Origin: a virus
Lineage: Duplodnaviria > Heunggongvirae > Uroviricota > Caudoviricetes
Length of the DNA: 6,359 bases
Virus record (IMG/VR): IMGVR_UViG_2619619134_000014
Strand: one strand, 5' to 3'
Positions within the stretch are counted from its first letter, which is position 1. The number at the start of each line of letters is the position of its first letter. The notes beneath the pieces are model-generated. The model was not told the origin of the DNA. It was given only the letters and a program-made list of their open reading frames with translations, and did no database searches. Both the position numbers and the translations under genes were made by a program. Shown here piece after piece: positions 1-6,359 of this stretch.

Positions 1-276
1 TTACCGACTGCGGCCTGAGTTTTTTAAGTGACGTAAAATCGTGTTGAGGCCAACGCCCATAATGCGGGCTGTTGCCCGGCATCCAACGCCATTCATGGCC
101 ATATCAATGATTTTCTGGTGCGTACCGGGTTGAGAAGCGGTGTAAGTGAACTGCAGTTGCCATGTTTTACGGCAGTGAGAGCAGAGATAGCGCTGATGTC
201 CGGCGGTGCTTTTGCCGTTACGCACCACCCCGTCAGTAGCTGAACAGGAGGGACAGCTGATAGAAACAGAAGCCAC
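1..276 (-). CDS. insA: IS1 InsA protein (91 aa)
   Basis: Translation [91 protein letters not shown] matches IS1 InsA from memory, including the zinc-finger-like CxxC...CxxC N-terminus and the HTH region. Confidence 0.95.
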
Positions 277-308
277 TGGAGCACCTCAAAAACACCATCA
301 TACACTAA

Positions 309-331
309 ATCAGTAAGTTGGCAGCATCACC
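309..331 (-). repeat. IS1 terminal inverted repeat (about 23 bp)
   Basis: Reverse complement of 309..331 is GGTGATGCTGCCAACTTACTGAT, matching the IS1 terminal inverted repeat as recalled. The transition to non-IS sequence is at 331/332. Confidence 0.85.
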
Positions 332-498
332 CGATGAACCATGAGAACGTCGTTGACGATGGCGTGCATTTTCCCGTCTTTATCATCAACGTATTTTCTG
401 ACCGTACCGCGACTACATTTCAGTCTGCGTGCTACTTCTGTCTGGTTTCCGTATGCTTCAACGAGCATGTCTGGAATGGTTTTTACTGAGAACGTCAT
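332..498 (-). pseudogene. ninH: ninH homologue, 3'-truncated by the IS1 insertion (first 56 codons intact)
   Basis: ORF 310..498 begins [56 protein letters not shown], matching lambda NinH (68 aa, from memory) up to residue 56. It then continues as VMLPTY-stop, which is encoded by IS1 terminal sequence. The ATG at 498 overlaps the ninG stop (ATGA). Confidence 0.8.
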
Positions 499-1106
499 GC
501 GGCCTCACTTCTGCTATTTCGCAGGTCTTTGAGTTTCTGCTGATACTCCGCCTTGATGGCCCTGCACTCTTCGACAGTCCAACGATGGCGGCTATGGTTT
601 GATTCGATTTCGTCTACTGCTTCCTGCCCGATGCGGCTAATCAGTTCGACGCGATACGGAACGAGATTTCCGCTTTTGTGCTGGTTGCACACCACGCATT
701 GCTTGTGAATATTGCGTTCATCAAATCGGAGTTGAGGTGCCGCAGCAGTTGTCCGGTAATGTCCGGCATCCCACTGAGCAGACGTGAGCGTTCCGCACGA
801 GATACATGGTAAGTCGCGGTCTCTTTCTCTGATGAAGGCGTTTACGGCTTTTTGGGCTTGTTTAATCCAGTAACTGCGGGGCTTTAAGGCGAGTTTTCGA
901 ATCTTAAGTTTATCTTTCTGTTTCTGCTCCTCTCGTCGTCGTTTCTTCTCTGCTGCCTTTTCCGCTTTTTCGCGTTCTTTGCTTCGTCGTTCGAGTGCTA
1001 TCTTTGTTCCACACTCTGGAGAGCACCACCACTGATTAGCGAATGCAGGGTGAAACCATTCCCGACATTCATCGTTTTTACATCGTCTTCGCGCTGGTTT
1101 AGCCAT
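495..1106 (-). CDS. ninG: NinG/Rap recombination-promoting protein (203 aa)
   Basis: Translation [41 protein letters not shown]... with a cysteine-rich N-terminus and a central lysine/glutamate-rich segment matches lambda NinG (Rap) as recalled. The gene sits between ninF and ninH as in lambda. Confidence 0.88.
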
Positions 1107-1275
1107 CGTCTTCTTCCTCGTACATTGAGCTATTCGGATCGCTCATCAGTTCTGCGCAGCAGTGCTCACACACGTGAACTTCCAGCACATGCAGCTTCTG
1201 ACCGCAGTTAGCGCACGTTAATGCCCGCTCGACGCTTTCTTTCTGGTATTGAAGGGATTGGGATGGGCTAAGCAT
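1102..1275 (-). CDS. ninF: NinF (57 aa)
   Basis: Not in the ORF track because it is under 60 aa. Manual translation of the minus strand from ATG at 1275 gives [58 protein letters not shown]-stop, with two CxxC pairs, matching lambda NinF as recalled. Its 3' end overlaps the ninG start. Confidence 0.82.
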
Positions 1276-1636
1276 TATTGGCGTCCTGAATCATGAGAAA
1301 TACAATCATGGCTGCGCGGAGAGGCGATTCACCGCAGAAGCAGTAGTCAGGAACCCAACAACCTTCCTCTAAATCACCTCCTGACCATGCGCACCATTCT
1401 TTTTCCGCTGTCATCCACATGGTGCTAATTTTGTTTTCAGTGATGATCGGATATGCGTCAGCGGCCATATTACATGGGTCGAAATATCCGCAAGGCAAAA
1501 ACTCACCACCATCAATTCCAGCCAAGTAAACTTCTTTCTTTTCTGGATCCCAGTCGTAATTGTTTTTTCCTAGCACGATATGCGCGACTTTTAAGTTAAT
1601 TTCAAAATCACTTAACTGTGAATAATCCATGGTCAT
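1268..1636 (-). CDS. NinX-like phage protein (about 122 aa) inserted between ninE and ninF
   Basis: ORF 1268..1672 minus. The likely start is ATG at 1636 ([44 protein letters not shown]...), preceded by GAGGAA and overlapping the ninE stop (ATGA). P22-type nin regions carry a ninX gene at this position; the family assignment is from memory and is not verified by alignment. Confidence 0.55.
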
Positions 1637-1809
1637 TTCCTCGCACGTTCTCTTAGCCACCGGATATCCCACAGGTGAGCCGTGTAATTGAAGGTTTTTA
1701 CGTCAGATTCTTTTGGGATTGGCTTGCGTTTATTTCTGGAGTGTTTCGTTGGAAGGTATTTGCAGTTTTCACAGATTATGTCGGTGATACTTCGTCGCTG
1801 TCGTCTCAT
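1633..1809 (-). CDS. ninE: NinE (58 aa)
   Basis: Internal Met of ORF 1633..1854 gives [58 protein letters not shown], matching lambda NinE as recalled. The ATG at 1809 overlaps the stop of the upstream gene (ATGA). Confidence 0.8.
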
Positions 1810-2216
1810 TCGTACCTCCTGTCGGTAAATCTGACACCCTGACCAATAGCCCATGCTGTCGTGTACTCAATCAGACTTGCCATACGCTTCACACTCATCT
1901 GCGCGCTACTTTCGCGAATGTTGACGTATTCGCCTTCAAGGCCGGGCAAAACATCAGCTTCCTGCTTTGTTGCCACTGCATGACCGCTGATCAACAAAAC
2001 CTTCCATTGTTCCGGTTTTAACCATTTGCCGCACCATTGAACCTGACGTGCGATATCCGCCAGCATCGCGTGAAATTTTGCGTTCTGGTCAAGGTTGCGC
2101 TTGTAGTCAGTAATGCGGATGGTGACTGGCTTGTCTTTATCGAGTGGTGTTGCGAGGATGGCATTTATTGCAGCTTGCTGTTGTTGCTTAGTTCGGAGGA
2201 AGATTGTTTGCTTCAC
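1806..2216 (-). CDS. ninB: NinB-family (NinB/Orf-like) recombination mediator, GTG start (136 aa)
   Basis: Translation [79 protein letters not shown]... shares the conserved pattern of lambda NinB (..RSLDQNRKLWACLGDVSRQVEWHGRWL..ESWK..). AAGGAG lies 6 nt upstream of the GTG at 2216. Confidence 0.7.
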
Positions 2217-2227
2217 TGAATACTCCT

Positions 2228-2413
2228 TTATTTTTTATGCCTGTAACCCCATTCTTCCAGCAACCTTGCGGCGTACCACCCAAGAAACAAAGGAAAGAAC
2301 ATTACAATGAGATATTCCCCGCCACGGTCAATGTTCGAAATTGACCAGATTACGATGTAACCAGTGCAGGACAGGAATATTACAAACCCCAAAAAGCTAC
2401 TTCGTCGACTCAT
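2228..2413 (-). CDS. small predicted membrane protein with two hydrophobic segments (61 aa from ATG 2413; the ORF track starts 2 codons earlier at GTG 2419)
   Basis: Translation MSRRSSFLGFVIFLSCTGYIVIWSISNIDRGGEYLIVMFFPLFLGWYAARLLEEWGYRHKK has two hydrophobic stretches of about 19 residues and a basic C-terminus. AAGGAG lies 5 nt upstream of ATG 2413, and the stop of the upstream gene (TGA 2416-2418) sits between that SD and the ATG. No family recognised. Confidence 0.5.
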   Translation of the reverse strand: MSRRSSFLGFVIFLSCTGYIVIWSISNIDRGGEYLIVMFFPLFLGWYAARLLEEWGYRHKK

Positions 2414-2415
2414 GC

Positions 2416-2742
2416 TCACTCCTTCACTTTGATTCCAGCAGCGCGGATGTTTTCCTCATAAGCATCCATTGCATCACCGAAGCCATTGGAATAATCAACA
2501 GTAAACCCTTTGGCTAATGCTTCTCTGCTGTCGATAAACTTTGGCGCGGTTATTTCAATAGCTGCTCGCGATGCCTGCCACGTTTGCCAGTGGCCTTGAA
2601 CATCGTCCATCACGTATTGACCACCAATATTACCGCTGCCAATTTCATGGTGATTTTCAGGGTAACGGATAAGGTCTGAAGATTCGCCTCCACGTCGCAA
2701 CCAACTTTCTTCAAACTGGCATCTGCTTTCGTCATCTTTCAT
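2416..2742 (-). CDS. hypothetical phage protein, probably N-terminally truncated (108 aa from ATG 2742; the frame stays open upstream to 2820 with no start codon)
   Basis: ORF 2416..2742 minus (MKDDESRCQFEESWLRRGGESSDLIRYPENHHEIGSGNIGGQYVMDDVQGHW...). The same frame is open for a further 26 codons upstream (YAAFNSAVGGGSTPWGEPIFIECDCL) with no ATG, GTG or TTG, and there is no Shine-Dalgarno before ATG 2742. This suggests the true N-terminus was lost at the junction near 2820. Family not recognised. Confidence 0.45.
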   Translation of the reverse strand: MKDDESRCQFEESWLRRGGESSDLIRYPENHHEIGSGNIGGQYVMDDVQGHWQTWQASRAAIEITAPKFIDSREALAKGFTVDYSNGFGDAMDAYEENIRAAGIKVKE

Positions 2743-2820
2743 AAGGCAGTCACATTCAATAAAAATCGGCTCTCCCCAAGGAGTAGAACCTCCGCCAACG
2801 GCGGAGTTGAATGCGGCATA

Positions 2821-3309
2821 TCAATCAAGATTGATTCCGAATGGGTAACCAAATGGGATGCTGCTGAAAACACGCAGGTAGAAGCCGTCAAAGGTGGTCG
2901 TTCCGGTGCAATGAAGCGCGCTGCCGTTCAGTGGGGAATCGGTCGGTATCTGTATAACCTTGAGGAAGGTTTCGCACAAACATCTCTCGACAAAAAGCAG
3001 GGATGGCACAGGGCAAAACTCAAGGATGGAACAGGATTTTACTGGCTCCCTCCATCGCTGCCGGGCTGGGCAATCCCAGCATCAGATAACAAACCATCAC
3101 CAGAAAATACCAACCAGAAATCTCCATCGGTTGACTGCGAACAAATCCTGAAAGACTTCAGCGATTATGCAGCGACAGAAACTGACAAGAAAAAACTCAT
3201 CGAGCGTTATCAGCGTGACTGGCAATTAATGGCTGGCAATGAGGATGCGCAGGCTAAATGCGTTCAGGTAATGAACATCAGAGTTAACGAGCTAAAACAG
3301 GCGGCATAA
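2821..3309 (+). pseudogene. erf: C-terminal fragment of a Rad52/Erf-like single-strand annealing protein (ORF from Met 2911 is 132 aa; protein-like frame is open from about 2821)
   Basis: The frame reads ...AVKGGRSGAMKRAAVQWGIGRYLY..., resembling the conserved KRA..FG.G motif region of Rad52/Sak-type annealing proteins. The C-terminus (CEQILKDFSDYAATETDKKKLIERYQRDWQLMAGNEDAQAKCVQVMNIRVNELKQAA) closely resembles the P22 Erf C-terminus as I recall it. The 150 or so residues that should precede the motif are absent, and upstream in-frame sequence before about 2821 is not protein-like. Confidence 0.6.
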
Positions 3310-3825
3310 ATGGCAAGCAGAGGCGTAAATAAGGTGATCATTATTGGTCGCCTTGGGCATGATCCAGAAATCAGATATTCACCATCAGGAACGGCATTTG
3401 CAAACCTTACAGTTGCTACGTCAGAACAATGGCGTGATAAGCAAACTGGAGAGCAAAAGGAGCAGACGGAGTGGCACCGCGTGGTAATGAGCGGGAAACT
3501 GGCAGAAATTGCCAGCGAATATCTGCGAAAAGGCTCTGAGGTTTATCTTGAAGGAAAATTGCGGACAAGAAAATGGCAGGATCAAAGCGGACAGGATAGG
3601 TTCACTACCGAAGTCATCGTGGGCGTTGGTGGAACCATGCAAATGCTTGGTGGCAAGCAAGGAGGCAATGAACAGTCTTCACCTCAGCGAAATAACGGTC
3701 AGCAACAAAGACAGCAATCTCAGCAGCAGGGGAATCACAGCGAACCACCTATGGATTTTGACGACGATATACCCTTTGCACCAGTAACTCTCCCCTTCCC
3801 TCGTCACGCTATTCACGCAATTTAA
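3310..3825 (+). CDS. ssb: single-stranded DNA-binding protein, phage-type, with a 15-residue extension beyond the canonical DDDIPF C-terminus (171 aa)
   Basis: Translation [115 protein letters not shown]... is near-collinear with E. coli SSB (OB fold, Gly/Gln-rich linker, [10 protein letters not shown] tail). The ATG at 3310 directly follows the erf stop (TAAATG). Confidence 0.95.
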
Positions 3826-3838
3826 TCAGGAGAAAATC

Positions 3839-4132
3839 ATGCCAGCGCCTCTGTATGGTGCGGACGACGCGCGCCGCTGTTCCGGCAATTCCGTATCAGA
3901 GGTGCTGGATAAATTCAGAAAAAACTACGATCGGATAATGTCGCTACCGCAGGAAACGAAAGAGGAAAAGGAATTTCGCCATTGTATATGGCTTGCAGAG
4001 AAAGAAGAACGCGAGCGGATTTACCAGACATCAATCCGACCATTCCGCAAAGCCACATATACCCACTTCCCTGAAATTGACCCGCGCCTGCGTAATTATC
4101 GATCACGCTATGGCGCTATCAGTAATGACTGA
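3839..4132 (+). CDS. hypothetical small phage protein (97 aa); possibly Abc2-like anti-RecBCD, unverified
   Basis: ORF with AGGAG 6 nt upstream of ATG 3839. Translation [97 protein letters not shown]. Its size and position downstream of the recombination genes are reminiscent of P22 abc2, but I cannot confirm sequence identity from memory. Confidence 0.6.
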
Positions 4133-4142
4133 GGAATTTACC

Positions 4143-4310
4143 ATGAGAGGACTTGCATACAATCCCGGCATTCTTCCGGCAGAAATGATTATTCGCCAAC
4201 GCGTAAAGCCAATGCCATCGAGAGAGGAATTGCTTAAAAGGAAGAGTTTCGGTTCTGTTAATGACAACAAATATCTGAATGCGATGTGGCGTAAAGGAGG
4301 CAAGCAGTGA
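4143..4310 (+). CDS. hypothetical small basic protein (55 aa)
   Basis: Internal ATG 4143 of track ORF 3993..4310, chosen because GAGGA lies 7 nt upstream and it starts just after the stop of the preceding gene. Translation [55 protein letters not shown]. Its stop overlaps the next gene's GTG start. Confidence 0.5.
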
Positions 4311-4607: not shown

Positions 4608-5216
4608 ATGACCAAAATTAACTATCAGGCGCTGCGTGAAAAGGCAGAGAAAGCAACGAGTGGTGTGTGGTCGCTCGAATATGGAGAGGAGAGATTTGAT
4701 GCTGGTGATGCGCTAATTCATCGTGAAGTTGTTGGATATCTTCCCATTTGCAGAATTGAAGGAGCGCATCCTGAAAGCGGTTTCGATGAAGATTTCCAAA
4801 TGGAACAGCAGGCCAATGCTGAATTCATCGCCGCAGCCAATCCGGCTACCGTCTTGGCGCTGCTTGGCGAGCTGGAAGCAGCAAAAAAGCGCATAGCAGA
4901 ACTGGAAGCCGAACCTGTAAGCCAAACTTGCAAGTTGAACGAGCCATCGGGCAACTCTCCGGTAACTCCGGATGGTTGGGTTATAGTGCCGAAGAAACTA
5001 ACCGCTGAGAACGGCGCTAAGGGTGTGCTATCCGGTGAATTTTCAGAAACTACGTTTATAAGCTGCCCGGAATGCTTTGGTGATGATGATTGCGAAACTT
5101 GTGACGGCAGCGGGAGAATCGAAATCAAGGTTCCAGTCAGTTGGACAACTATCAAAACTATTTGGGCTAAAGGGTGTGAGTACTTTTCAATAGTAGCACC
5201 GCAGCAAGATGGGTGA
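4608..5216 (+). CDS. ead/Ea22-like protein with a C-terminal double-CxxC (CxxCxGxG-like) zinc-ribbon motif (202 aa)
   Basis: The N-terminal region (MTKINYQALREKAEKATSGVWSLEY ... ANAEFIAAANPATVLALLGELEAAKKRIAELEAEP) resembles the conserved N-terminus and coiled coil of lambdoid ead/Ea22-like proteins as I recall them. The C-terminus has CPECFGDDDCETCDGSGRIE. The start at 4608 follows the upstream stop by 1 nt. Confidence 0.55.
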   Translation: MTKINYQALREKAEKATSGVWSLEYGEERFDAGDALIHREVVGYLPICRIEGAHPESGFDEDFQMEQQANAEFIAAANPATVLALLGELEAAKKRIAELEAEPVSQTCKLNEPSGNSPVTPDGWVIVPKKLTAENGAKGVLSGEFSETTFISCPECFGDDDCETCDGSGRIEIKVPVSWTTIKTIWAKGCEYFSIVAPQQDG

Positions 5217-5342: not shown

Positions 5343-5585
5343 ATGTTCAAACGCTGCATCACCAAGTGTGGAAGCACACCTGACATCCAAGCTTTTATTA
5401 ATGAAGATGGTAAGCTTGTTGTTGAGAGGAGTGGTCCTTTTATTAGCAAACAACTTATCATTACCTCTCCAGCGGAGATGGCCGGGGAATGGATAGTTTC
5501 TGAACCAGAGGAGTTGCACATCCCGCTTCCTTATGGCCCTCAGGGACTGATTTATAACCGTTATGTTCAGAAGGAGGCGGGTTGA
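5343..5585 (+). CDS. hypothetical small protein (80 aa), moron-like
   Basis: Internal ATG of track ORF 5301..5585, with a G-rich SD-like GGGGGG about 7 nt upstream. Translation MFKRCITKCGSTPDIQAFINEDGKLVVERSGPFISKQLIITSPAEMAGEWIVSEPEELHIPLPYGPQGLIYNRYVQKEAG. No family recognised. Confidence 0.5.
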   Translation: MFKRCITKCGSTPDIQAFINEDGKLVVERSGPFISKQLIITSPAEMAGEWIVSEPEELHIPLPYGPQGLIYNRYVQKEAG

Positions 5586-5661
5586 CAATGTCAGGCATAA
5601 CATCGCCGAGAAATCGAAAGAAAAACAGAACAAGGTAAACGTTGACCTTGCAGCATCAGGC

Positions 5662-5844
5662 ATGGAGTACAGAGAGCGCCTTAACATACCTGTTATCACT
5701 GAGCAGGTATCATGAGAGCAACCTGAGCACTCACGCGAGTATTTCATGGAGCGCATCAGATACTATCGCGAGCAGTCGTTAAACATGCCCAAGGGAAGCA
5801 ACCCATGGTATATCGATATGGATGAACAGAACGCCAAGAAGTAA
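5662..5844 (+). pseudogene. small ORF interrupted by an in-frame TGA at 5713..5715 (about 60 codons if read through); candidate decayed gene
   Basis: Manual translation of one frame gives MEYRERLNIPVITEQVS-stop-EQPEHSREYFMERIRYYREQSLNMPKGSNPWYIDMDEQNAKK-stop. The same frame is open back to 5551. A second frame carries AAGGAGG (5571-5577) followed by ATG 5588 encoding only 16 basic residues (MSGITSPRNRKKNRTR). An intrinsic terminator follows. Confidence 0.35.
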
Positions 5845-5864
5845 ACGCAATTTGAACGAATGCG

Positions 5865-5890
5865 AACCCGCCGAGTGCGGGTTTTCTTTT
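5865..5890 (+). terminator. putative Rho-independent terminator
   Basis: AACCCGC (5865-5871), loop CGAGT, GCGGGTT (5877-5883), followed by TTTCTTTT. This is a 7-bp GC-rich stem with a T-rich tail, 20 nt after the TAA at 5842-5844. Confidence 0.6.
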
Positions 5891-5933: not shown

Positions 5934-6101
5934 ATGCACTTCCGAGTCACAGGTGAATGGAATGGAGAACCATTCAACAGAGTTATCGAAGCGGAGAACA
6001 TCAACGACTGCTATGACCACTGGATGATATGGGCGCAGATAGCGCATGCAGACGTAACCAATATTCGAATTGAAGAACTGAAAGAACACCAAGCCGCCTG
6101 A
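5934..6101 (+). CDS. hypothetical small protein (55 aa)
   Basis: Below the ORF-track size cutoff; found manually. GGAG lies 7 nt upstream of ATG 5934. Translation MHFRVTGEWNGEPFNRVIEAENINDCYDHWMIWAQIAHADVTNIRIEELKEHQAA. It is flanked by intrinsic terminators on both sides. Confidence 0.55.
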   Translation: MHFRVTGEWNGEPFNRVIEAENINDCYDHWMIWAQIAHADVTNIRIEELKEHQAA

Positions 6102-6114
6102 TGGCGGTTTTTTA
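6093..6114 (+). terminator. putative Rho-independent terminator overlapping the stop codon of the 55-aa gene
   Basis: GCCGCC (6093-6098), loop TGAT, GGCGG (6103-6107), followed by TTTTTTATT. The TGA stop (6099-6101) lies in the loop. Confidence 0.6.
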
Positions 6115-6158: not shown

Positions 6159-6359
6159 ATGCAACACGAACTACAACCTGATTCACTGGTTGATTTGAAA
6201 TTCATCATGGCTGATACTGGCTTCGGTAAGACCTTCATCTATGACCGGATTAAGTCCGGCGACCTGCCAAAAGCCAAAGTTATCCACGGGCGAGCAAGAT
6301 GGTTATATCGTGACCATTGTGAATTCAAAAATAAGCTCTTAAGCCGCGCCAATGGGTAA
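6159..6359 (+). CDS. alpA: AlpA-family phage regulatory protein / excisionase-like DNA-binding protein (66 aa)
   Basis: Translation MQHELQPDSLVDLKFIMADTGFGKTFIYDRIKSGDLPKAKVIHGRARWLYRDHCEFKNKLLSRANG fits the AlpA/Vis-type helix-turn-helix pattern (..TG.S..TIY..I..G.FP.P.K.G.R...W.). GGAG lies 9 nt upstream of the ATG. Confidence 0.72.
   Translation: MQHELQPDSLVDLKFIMADTGFGKTFIYDRIKSGDLPKAKVIHGRARWLYRDHCEFKNKLLSRANG

Follow-up and report, generated by a model that had tools for sequence, protein, structure and literature searches.

The Ea22-like gene and its prophage setting

The window, by which we mean the whole stretch of 6,359 nt that was analysed, is a decayed P22/lambda-like prophage. 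Positions 1–3309 hold, on the minus strand, IS1 InsA at the left edge, NinH, NinG, NinF, NinX and NinB, and then a plus-strand recombinase ORF. The nin genes abut this ORF, which matches only profile positions 119–153 of 153 (the last ∼35) of Rad52_Rad22 and is a Rad52/Rad22-type remnant. Immunity and replication genes, expected between nin and the early-left genes, are missing from the window, which indicates that a deletion joined both arms. On the plus strand the Rad52-like remnant is followed by SSB, Abc2 (anti-RecBCD), DUF7739, the Ea22-like gene, an 80-aa hypothetical, an interrupted theta homologue and a TorI-like excisionase. Three small ORFs lack any Pfam or PADLOC match: a 107-aa ORF adjoining the deletion joint (2416–2742, minus strand), a 105-aa ORF with a TTG start that overlaps the end of abc2 (3993–4310, plus strand) and the 80-aa ORF downstream of the Ea22-like gene (5343–5585, plus strand).

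The location of the Ea22-like gene, between recombination genes and xis/int, is that expected of Ead/Ea22 (early-left accessory region). Gene order is the same in relatives, where it ends in excisionase and integrase or in torI adjoining dsdC, the latter being what we take to be the KplE1/CPS-53 site, and this order places the gene in an accessory 'ea'/exo-xis-like stretch. No conserved neighbour gene pointing to a partner was found in the relatives' gene neighbourhoods. Further downstream, what remains of a homologue of DNA polymerase III theta (5563–5715, plus strand) matches profile positions 2–39 of 70 of PF06440 (E 3.4e–15); two E. coli relatives carry an internal stop in the corresponding gene, which their annotation lists as a pseudogene. 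The last ORF (6159–6359, plus strand) is excisionase-like, and E. coli LR-27 has a counterpart that bears the annotation TorI and adjoins dsdC, a neighbour that suggests the KplE1/CPS-53 attachment site. Two strong terminator-like hairpins with T tracts (5864–5884 and 6091–6110, plus strand) stand between the theta remnant and the excisionase gene, the second directly 3′ of a 55-aa ORF (5934–6101). The local biological impact of the Ea22-like gene is probably small, since it sits in a decayed prophage.

The gene itself (4608–5216, plus strand) is the longest frame here. It encodes 202 aa, with the stop codon at 5214–5216 and a translation ending in ...FISCPECFGDDDCETCDGSGRIEIKVPVSWTTIKTIWAKGCEYFSIVAPQQDG, and the exact protein is found in NCBI on 83 contigs as 'ead/Ea22-like family protein [Escherichia coli]'. 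Its N-terminal domain (aa 3–102, nt 4614–4913, plus strand) matches Pfam Ead_Ea22 (PF13935, E 1.8e–19, 71.1 bits versus a cutoff of 27), which bears out the family assignment made in the original prediction. The match is confined to these residues and to profile positions 2–89 of 139; PHROG 60, 368, 250 and others match aa 1–102, and the PHROG matches as a whole, all to families of unknown function, fall mainly in aa 1–105. A short coiled-coil-like segment, LALLGELEAAKKRIAELEAE, lies within a predicted long helix (aa 60–101), which AF2 builds in the full-length model as helices 60–76 and 79–101 (pLDDT 58–75).

The next 18 residues (aa 103–120, PVSQTCKLNEPSGNSPVT, nt 4914–4967, plus strand) form a linker and recombination junction, as judged by pLDDT, phage matches and converging N-termini. 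In the full-length model aa 102–128 are disordered, with pLDDT below 50. Megablast matches of phage DNA to the gene end at its nt 257–387, so that those to sequenced phages cover only the 5′ 42–63% of the gene, and unrelated N-termini converge on the linker ...(CRAAMLQA)GNSPV(T/I)PDGW. The portable C-terminal module follows (aa 121–196, ∼76 aa, nt 4968–5195, plus strand), as supported by 1315 sequence clusters, two AF2 runs and dN/dS. It is laid out as a helix (TAENGAKG), a strand (EFSETTFI), a Cys4 loop, a second strand (RIEIKVPV) and a closing helix (WTTIKTIWAKGCEYF).

The Cys4 loop within the module

The loop, CPECFGDDDCETCDGSG (aa 153–169, nt 5064–5114, plus strand), contains C153, C156, C162 and C165 (nt 5064–5102) together with G167 and G169, all within the last 50 residues of the protein, which include CPECFGDDDCETCDGSGRIE. 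A cysteine motif at the C-terminus of an Ea22-like protein, as originally predicted, is therefore real in the ORF translation, and it is beyond chance: any CxxC-x3-14-CxxC arose in 215 of 200,000 residue shuffles that preserved the protein's own composition, with its 7 Cys. Its details differ from those predicted. The spacing had been given as CxxC-x7-CxxCxGxG, while the sequence reads CxxC-x5-CxxCxGxG, and of the supposed CxxCxGxG pair only knuckle 2 (CETCDGSG) is perfect, knuckle 1 being CPECFGDD, that is CxxCxGxD.

Comparison of homologues, which had been set as a check, came out in favour of the cysteines. All four are invariant in three alignments (A1, A2 and A6) that include 35–43%-identical phage homologues, as are K138, G143, E144, F145, W179, K183 and I185 elsewhere in the module. 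Across 104 distinct inserts (330 proteins) the four Cys are kept in 100; knuckle 2 has the form CxxCxGxG in 78 of these, and knuckle 1 that of CxxCxG(xG) in 88. Spacers between Cys2 and Cys3 are 4, 5, 8, 9, 10 or 14 residues long, and in the subfamily with the 4-residue spacer both knuckles are perfect and adjacent CxxCxGxG, e.g. CHECFGEGCEDCSGDG. The four exceptions are two single Cys substitutions, one CCC variant and one lineage, L104, that has the Cys-free PELDEDGNEH in place of the entire loop while keeping LTAENGMKAALIGEF and VPWTVIKKI. The Cys-free copy (IMG/VR UViG_2721756095_000001, 2992–3531) stands at the N-terminus of a 180-aa protein. As a separate observation, many E. coli alleles (P0007–P0017 and others) read CDCSG for CDGSG, which adds a fifth Cys beside the site.

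The most conserved parts of the module are LTAENGAK..L.GEF and W..IK.I. The Cys motif is a variable-length insert in a larger module and not the domain itself. The variable spacer and the Cys-free lineage, whose flanks are conserved, argue that the metal site is a structural clasp on the tip of a β-hairpin and not the core of the domain; the same lineage shows that the metal site is not essential to the module's role, and it offers a built-in natural control for the site's contribution. The proposed zinc-binding C-terminal domain accordingly holds as far as the conserved Cys are concerned, while the domain has to be redrawn as a ∼76-aa module into which the motif is inserted.

AF2 models of the full-length protein (pLDDT 52.1, pTM 0.23) and of aa 112–202 (pLDDT 60.7, pTM 0.30) are of low overall confidence and agree in topology: in the full-length model helix 133–140, strand 145–152, a 17-residue loop, strand 170–177 and helix 179–195. 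Both low-confidence models place all four Cys in this one loop between antiparallel strands, so that a single hairpin carries both knuckles. In both, confidence is highest over the loop (pLDDT 82–86; 82–84 in the aa 112–202 run). The predicted clustering of the four Cys rests on their position within one hairpin loop. Fold searches gave nothing significant; the top Foldseek match, also not significant, was anti-TRAP.

Distribution, selection and profile matches of the module

As DNA, the last 317 nt of the gene are present in 873 of 5426 complete E. coli genomes. Copies under different E. coli genes are 94–100% identical, and the genes that carry them are annotated as ead/Ea22-like, DUF551, DUF550, hypothetical or, for a fragment, 'molecular chaperone DnaJ'. 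Exhaustive searching with HMMER, for which aa 118–202 served as query, returned 1315 representative clusters (50% identity) at E ≤ 1e–3, with 248 at E ≤ 1e–30; among the matches listed, the module is 71–100% identical and lies inside proteins of 95–442 aa. Of the 279 proteins collected, 269 have it at the C-terminus; in a Pseudomonas phage and some IMG/VR contigs it is N-terminal. Among 143 representatives Pfam recognises 10 DUF550 dATP/dGTP pyrophosphohydrolases, 7 Ead_Ea22, 7 DUF551 and 1 ASCH/DUF3850, most others being without any Pfam domain. By tblastn the module occurs in phages of Escherichia, Klebsiella, Enterobacter and Salmonella (ST64B sb31), with more distant copies in Serratia, Pseudomonas and Vibrio phages; distant members were gathered from IMG/VR with subfamily queries. 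These data support a C-terminus that is a separate, swappable module found behind many unrelated N-termini, in line with the modularity that had been ascribed to Ea22 proteins.

Over the 228 nt of the module, 38 distinct IMG/VR relatives with dS > 0.1 gave a median dN/dS of 0.146 (Nei–Gojobori), with dS up to about 1.3, which shows that purifying selection acts on the encoded protein module and that it is more than a recombination cassette. It is also acidic, with pI 4.3–4.7 across the family and 12 D/E versus 7 K/R here. No Pfam, NCBIfam or PADLOC model covers it, and scans of the tail and its distant homologues against Pfam, NCBIfam, PHROGs and PADLOC found no family of known function.

The DnaJ-type resemblance that had been pointed out for the knuckles is upheld by profile comparison, as well as by the subfamilies in which both knuckles are perfect. 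Against all PDB sequences the only notable matches of the module profile were 2ctt (human DNAJA3, E 1.4e–3) and 1exk (E. coli DnaJ, E 4.2e–3), both DnaJ Cys-rich domains. With hhalign the probability was 64% against E. coli DnaJ and 78% against a nine-species DnaJ alignment (P 1.8e–5, 34 columns over DnaJ knuckles 3 and 4). No match to PF00684 or PF01556 was seen at E ≤ 10 for the tail, nor to PF00684 for four homologues, and a J-domain Pfam match is absent from the protein and from the 143 representatives. Sub-threshold Pfam matches on CETCDGSGRI were to Anti-TRAP and GRXCR1-2_C, both of which are DnaJ-like fingers; that to Anti-TRAP (PF15777) scored 12.1–13.6 bits versus a cutoff of 32, over 12–13 residues only. 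A classical zinc ribbon, the alternative offered in the original prediction, is not suggested by these results: the spacer of only 5 residues speaks against one, the low-confidence models set both knuckles in the loop of a single hairpin, and no zinc-ribbon or nucleic-acid-binding Pfam family matched at E ≤ 10.

We also considered that the module could be a cut-down DnaJ CTD-I with zinc centre I, an idea prompted by the likeness of LTAENGAKGV...C to LTLEEAVRGV...C and of GRIEIKVPV to GRVE..SVKIPAG. A profile of the pre-Cys flank alone, run on nine DnaJ sequences and 1800 shuffles, gave –20 to +1.9 bits on the DnaJ flanks, of which seven of nine fell within the shuffles and two reached P of about 0.014. 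The idea thus found no support and was dropped.

Possible role and relation to known systems

At about even odds, we read the locus as a mosaic Ea22-like gene that ends in an autonomous acidic, zinc-clamped module for docking or oligomerisation. It would count among the accessory genes that a defective P22/lambda-like prophage carries in its early-left ('ea', exo-xis-like) region, and would presumably be expressed from the early-left promoter as part of a leftward operon. Its product would consist of three joined pieces: an Ead/Ea22 head whose short helix is coiled-coil-like, a flexible linker and the acidic ∼76-aa module, predicted to fold as helix, strand, Cys4 loop, strand and helix. At the hairpin tip, the two CxxC knuckles most likely chelate one structural metal, presumably Zn2+, that would clamp the hairpin, with the DnaJ Cys-rich domain and anti-TRAP serving as models for such chelation. 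Protein–protein docking or oligomerisation seems the module's most likely role, the analogies being anti-TRAP and the acidic, partner-seeking domains of lambda and Stx Ea22 (PMC10834534, PMC7093339), and the module could bring many N-terminal 'heads' to the same partner, or into the same state of assembly, soon after infection or induction. In lambda and Stx phages Ea22 biases the lysis–lysogeny decision, and lysogenisation, induction and burst have been scored for their ea22 genes (PMC7093339); an effect of the present protein on that decision may be supposed by analogy with these phages. It should be noted that the invariant polar residues E134, N135, K138 and K183 could equally mark a small-ligand site.

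Other readings of the Cys4 module have to be weighed against a docking or oligomerisation role. Cys4 fingers often bind nucleic acids, the gene stands among recombination genes (Rad52-like remnant, SSB, Abc2) and one fusion partner is the ASCH/DUF3850 domain, all of which would suit a zinc finger or ribbon that brings the Ea22-like protein to DNA or RNA. The nucleic-acid-binding adaptor, one of two options in the original prediction, nevertheless appears unlikely to us, given the acidity of the whole family and a Cys loop rich in D/E (FGDDDCETCD), besides the lack of a fitting Pfam match and the existence of a Cys-free homologue. A true co-chaperone element of DnaJ-like kind, recruiting or modulating host DnaK, would have in its favour the PDB and hhalign matches to DnaJ Cys-rich domains and several NCBI, UniRef and nr members named 'molecular chaperone DnaJ' or 'DnaJ-like protein'. 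These record labels look like automated name transfer, and we regard a co-chaperone as very improbable, because the J domain is missing, DnaJ-family Pfam matches are absent, there are two knuckles versus four in DnaJ, and the likeness stops at the knuckles, as the flank test showed. The fragments that bear the NCBI label include a truncated copy that a deletion has fused beside NinF (AP027506; the loci noted here include L144:3048–3317). Judging by its charge and by the missing J domain, the module is probably neither a nucleic-acid binder nor a chaperone.

The same truncated copies at deletion joints, such as the one adjoining NinF, might be taken, together with the near-identical DNA copies under different E. 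coli genes and the recurring linker junctions, to mean that conservation reflects only DNA-level recombination of a recently spread 'boundary' cassette, with a tail lacking a function of its own. This too has very little probability in our estimate: the median dN/dS is low at dS values approaching 1, and 35–50%-identical homologues from Pseudomonas, Serratia and Vibrio phages retain the invariant residues. [quoted passage not shown] We find this improbable, as the spacing is unlike the ferredoxin CxxCxxCxxxCP, CxxCxGxG is typical of zinc knuckles, and the Cys-free lineage retains the remaining module.

Within the docking reading, a bolder version is that the module acts as a widespread 'address tag' which takes hundreds of N-terminal effector heads (nucleotide pyrophosphohydrolases, DUF551, Ea22 heads and unknowns) to one conserved host or phage target; this target might belong to the host's or phage's machinery for replication, recombination or chaperoning. 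We think it rather doubtful that so broad a scheme applies, yet if it did, knowing the partner would reveal at one stroke where in the cell's machinery more than 1000 orphan prophage protein families have their target. Being common to more than 1000 protein clusters, small and probably stable, the module makes a suitable bait for partner hunts. For annotators it is a new domain, missing from Pfam and NCBIfam and sometimes labelled 'molecular chaperone DnaJ', and it belongs to a group, the Ea22 family and neighbouring 'ea' genes, that ranks with the most poorly understood early genes in lambdoid and P22-like phages.

Ea22 proteins are mosaic, with swappable C-terminal domains (PMC10834534, PMC7093339); other C-terminal domains of the family are also acidic, and a partner protein was proposed for that of lambda (PMC10834534). 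Our protein shares with lambda and Stx Ea22 the N-terminal family (PF13935), the neighbourhood from recombination genes to xis/int, and the overall plan of an N-terminal segment, a coiled coil, a mobile linker and a swappable acidic C-terminal domain. Its coiled coil is much shorter (about 20–40 aa), and neither the lambda Ea22 CTD (NMR) nor any of the Stx variants V1–V3 (PMC10834534) is related to its C-terminal domain. A phmmer search of the full protein against all PDB chains (E ≤ 10) found no Ea22 chain and nothing relevant, and no Cys/zinc or DnaJ-like Ea22 tail was found in the searchable Ea22 literature (lambda CTD and three Stx variants). The Cys4 module is thus apparently undescribed, a further portable tail of Ea22 type built around a known type of zinc knuckle.

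A closer comparison is offered by gp21 of Shigella phage Sf6, whose Ead/Ea22 N-terminus and linker are nearly identical to ours and which has the same entry motif, SGNSPVTPDGWVMVPKELTPE, but continues past it into a Cys-free tail (MMRAVQIRSELGGY...), another C-terminal module. Several tail types seem to share the entry strand 'PDGW..VP..LT.E', seen in Sf6 gene 21 (L145:601–1281), which may be where recombination really joins the parts or may hint at a wider superfamily. As a mark of the junction between N- and C-terminal parts, the Sf6 'bsq3 boundary sequence' was considered and ruled out, since it covers the first 31 nt of the gene.

Regarding the cysteines, the knuckles are of DnaJ/anti-TRAP type by pattern, possibly through distant descent; the module itself belongs to neither the DnaJ nor the anti-TRAP family and is probably no classical zinc ribbon. 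Like DnaJ it would present CxxCxGxG-type knuckles at the tip of a β-hairpin, but DnaJ has four knuckles and two zinc sites, while the module has two knuckles and presumably one metal site, lacks both the J domain and the DnaJ C-terminal domain, and differs from DnaJ/Hsp40 in its flanks. DnaJ-type central-domain proteins have been noted in some marine phages and form a different family. Anti-TRAP (RtpA; PF15777; PDB 2zp9) resembles the module in being small and acidic and in having a single pair of DnaJ-like Cys4 knuckles, after which come a strand and a C-terminal helix; the sequences give no evidence of common descent. Anti-TRAP acts purely via protein–protein binding and oligomerises through its C-terminal helix. 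Compared with it, the phage module has an extra conserved helix at its N-terminus (LTAENGAK) and is normally fused to other domains.
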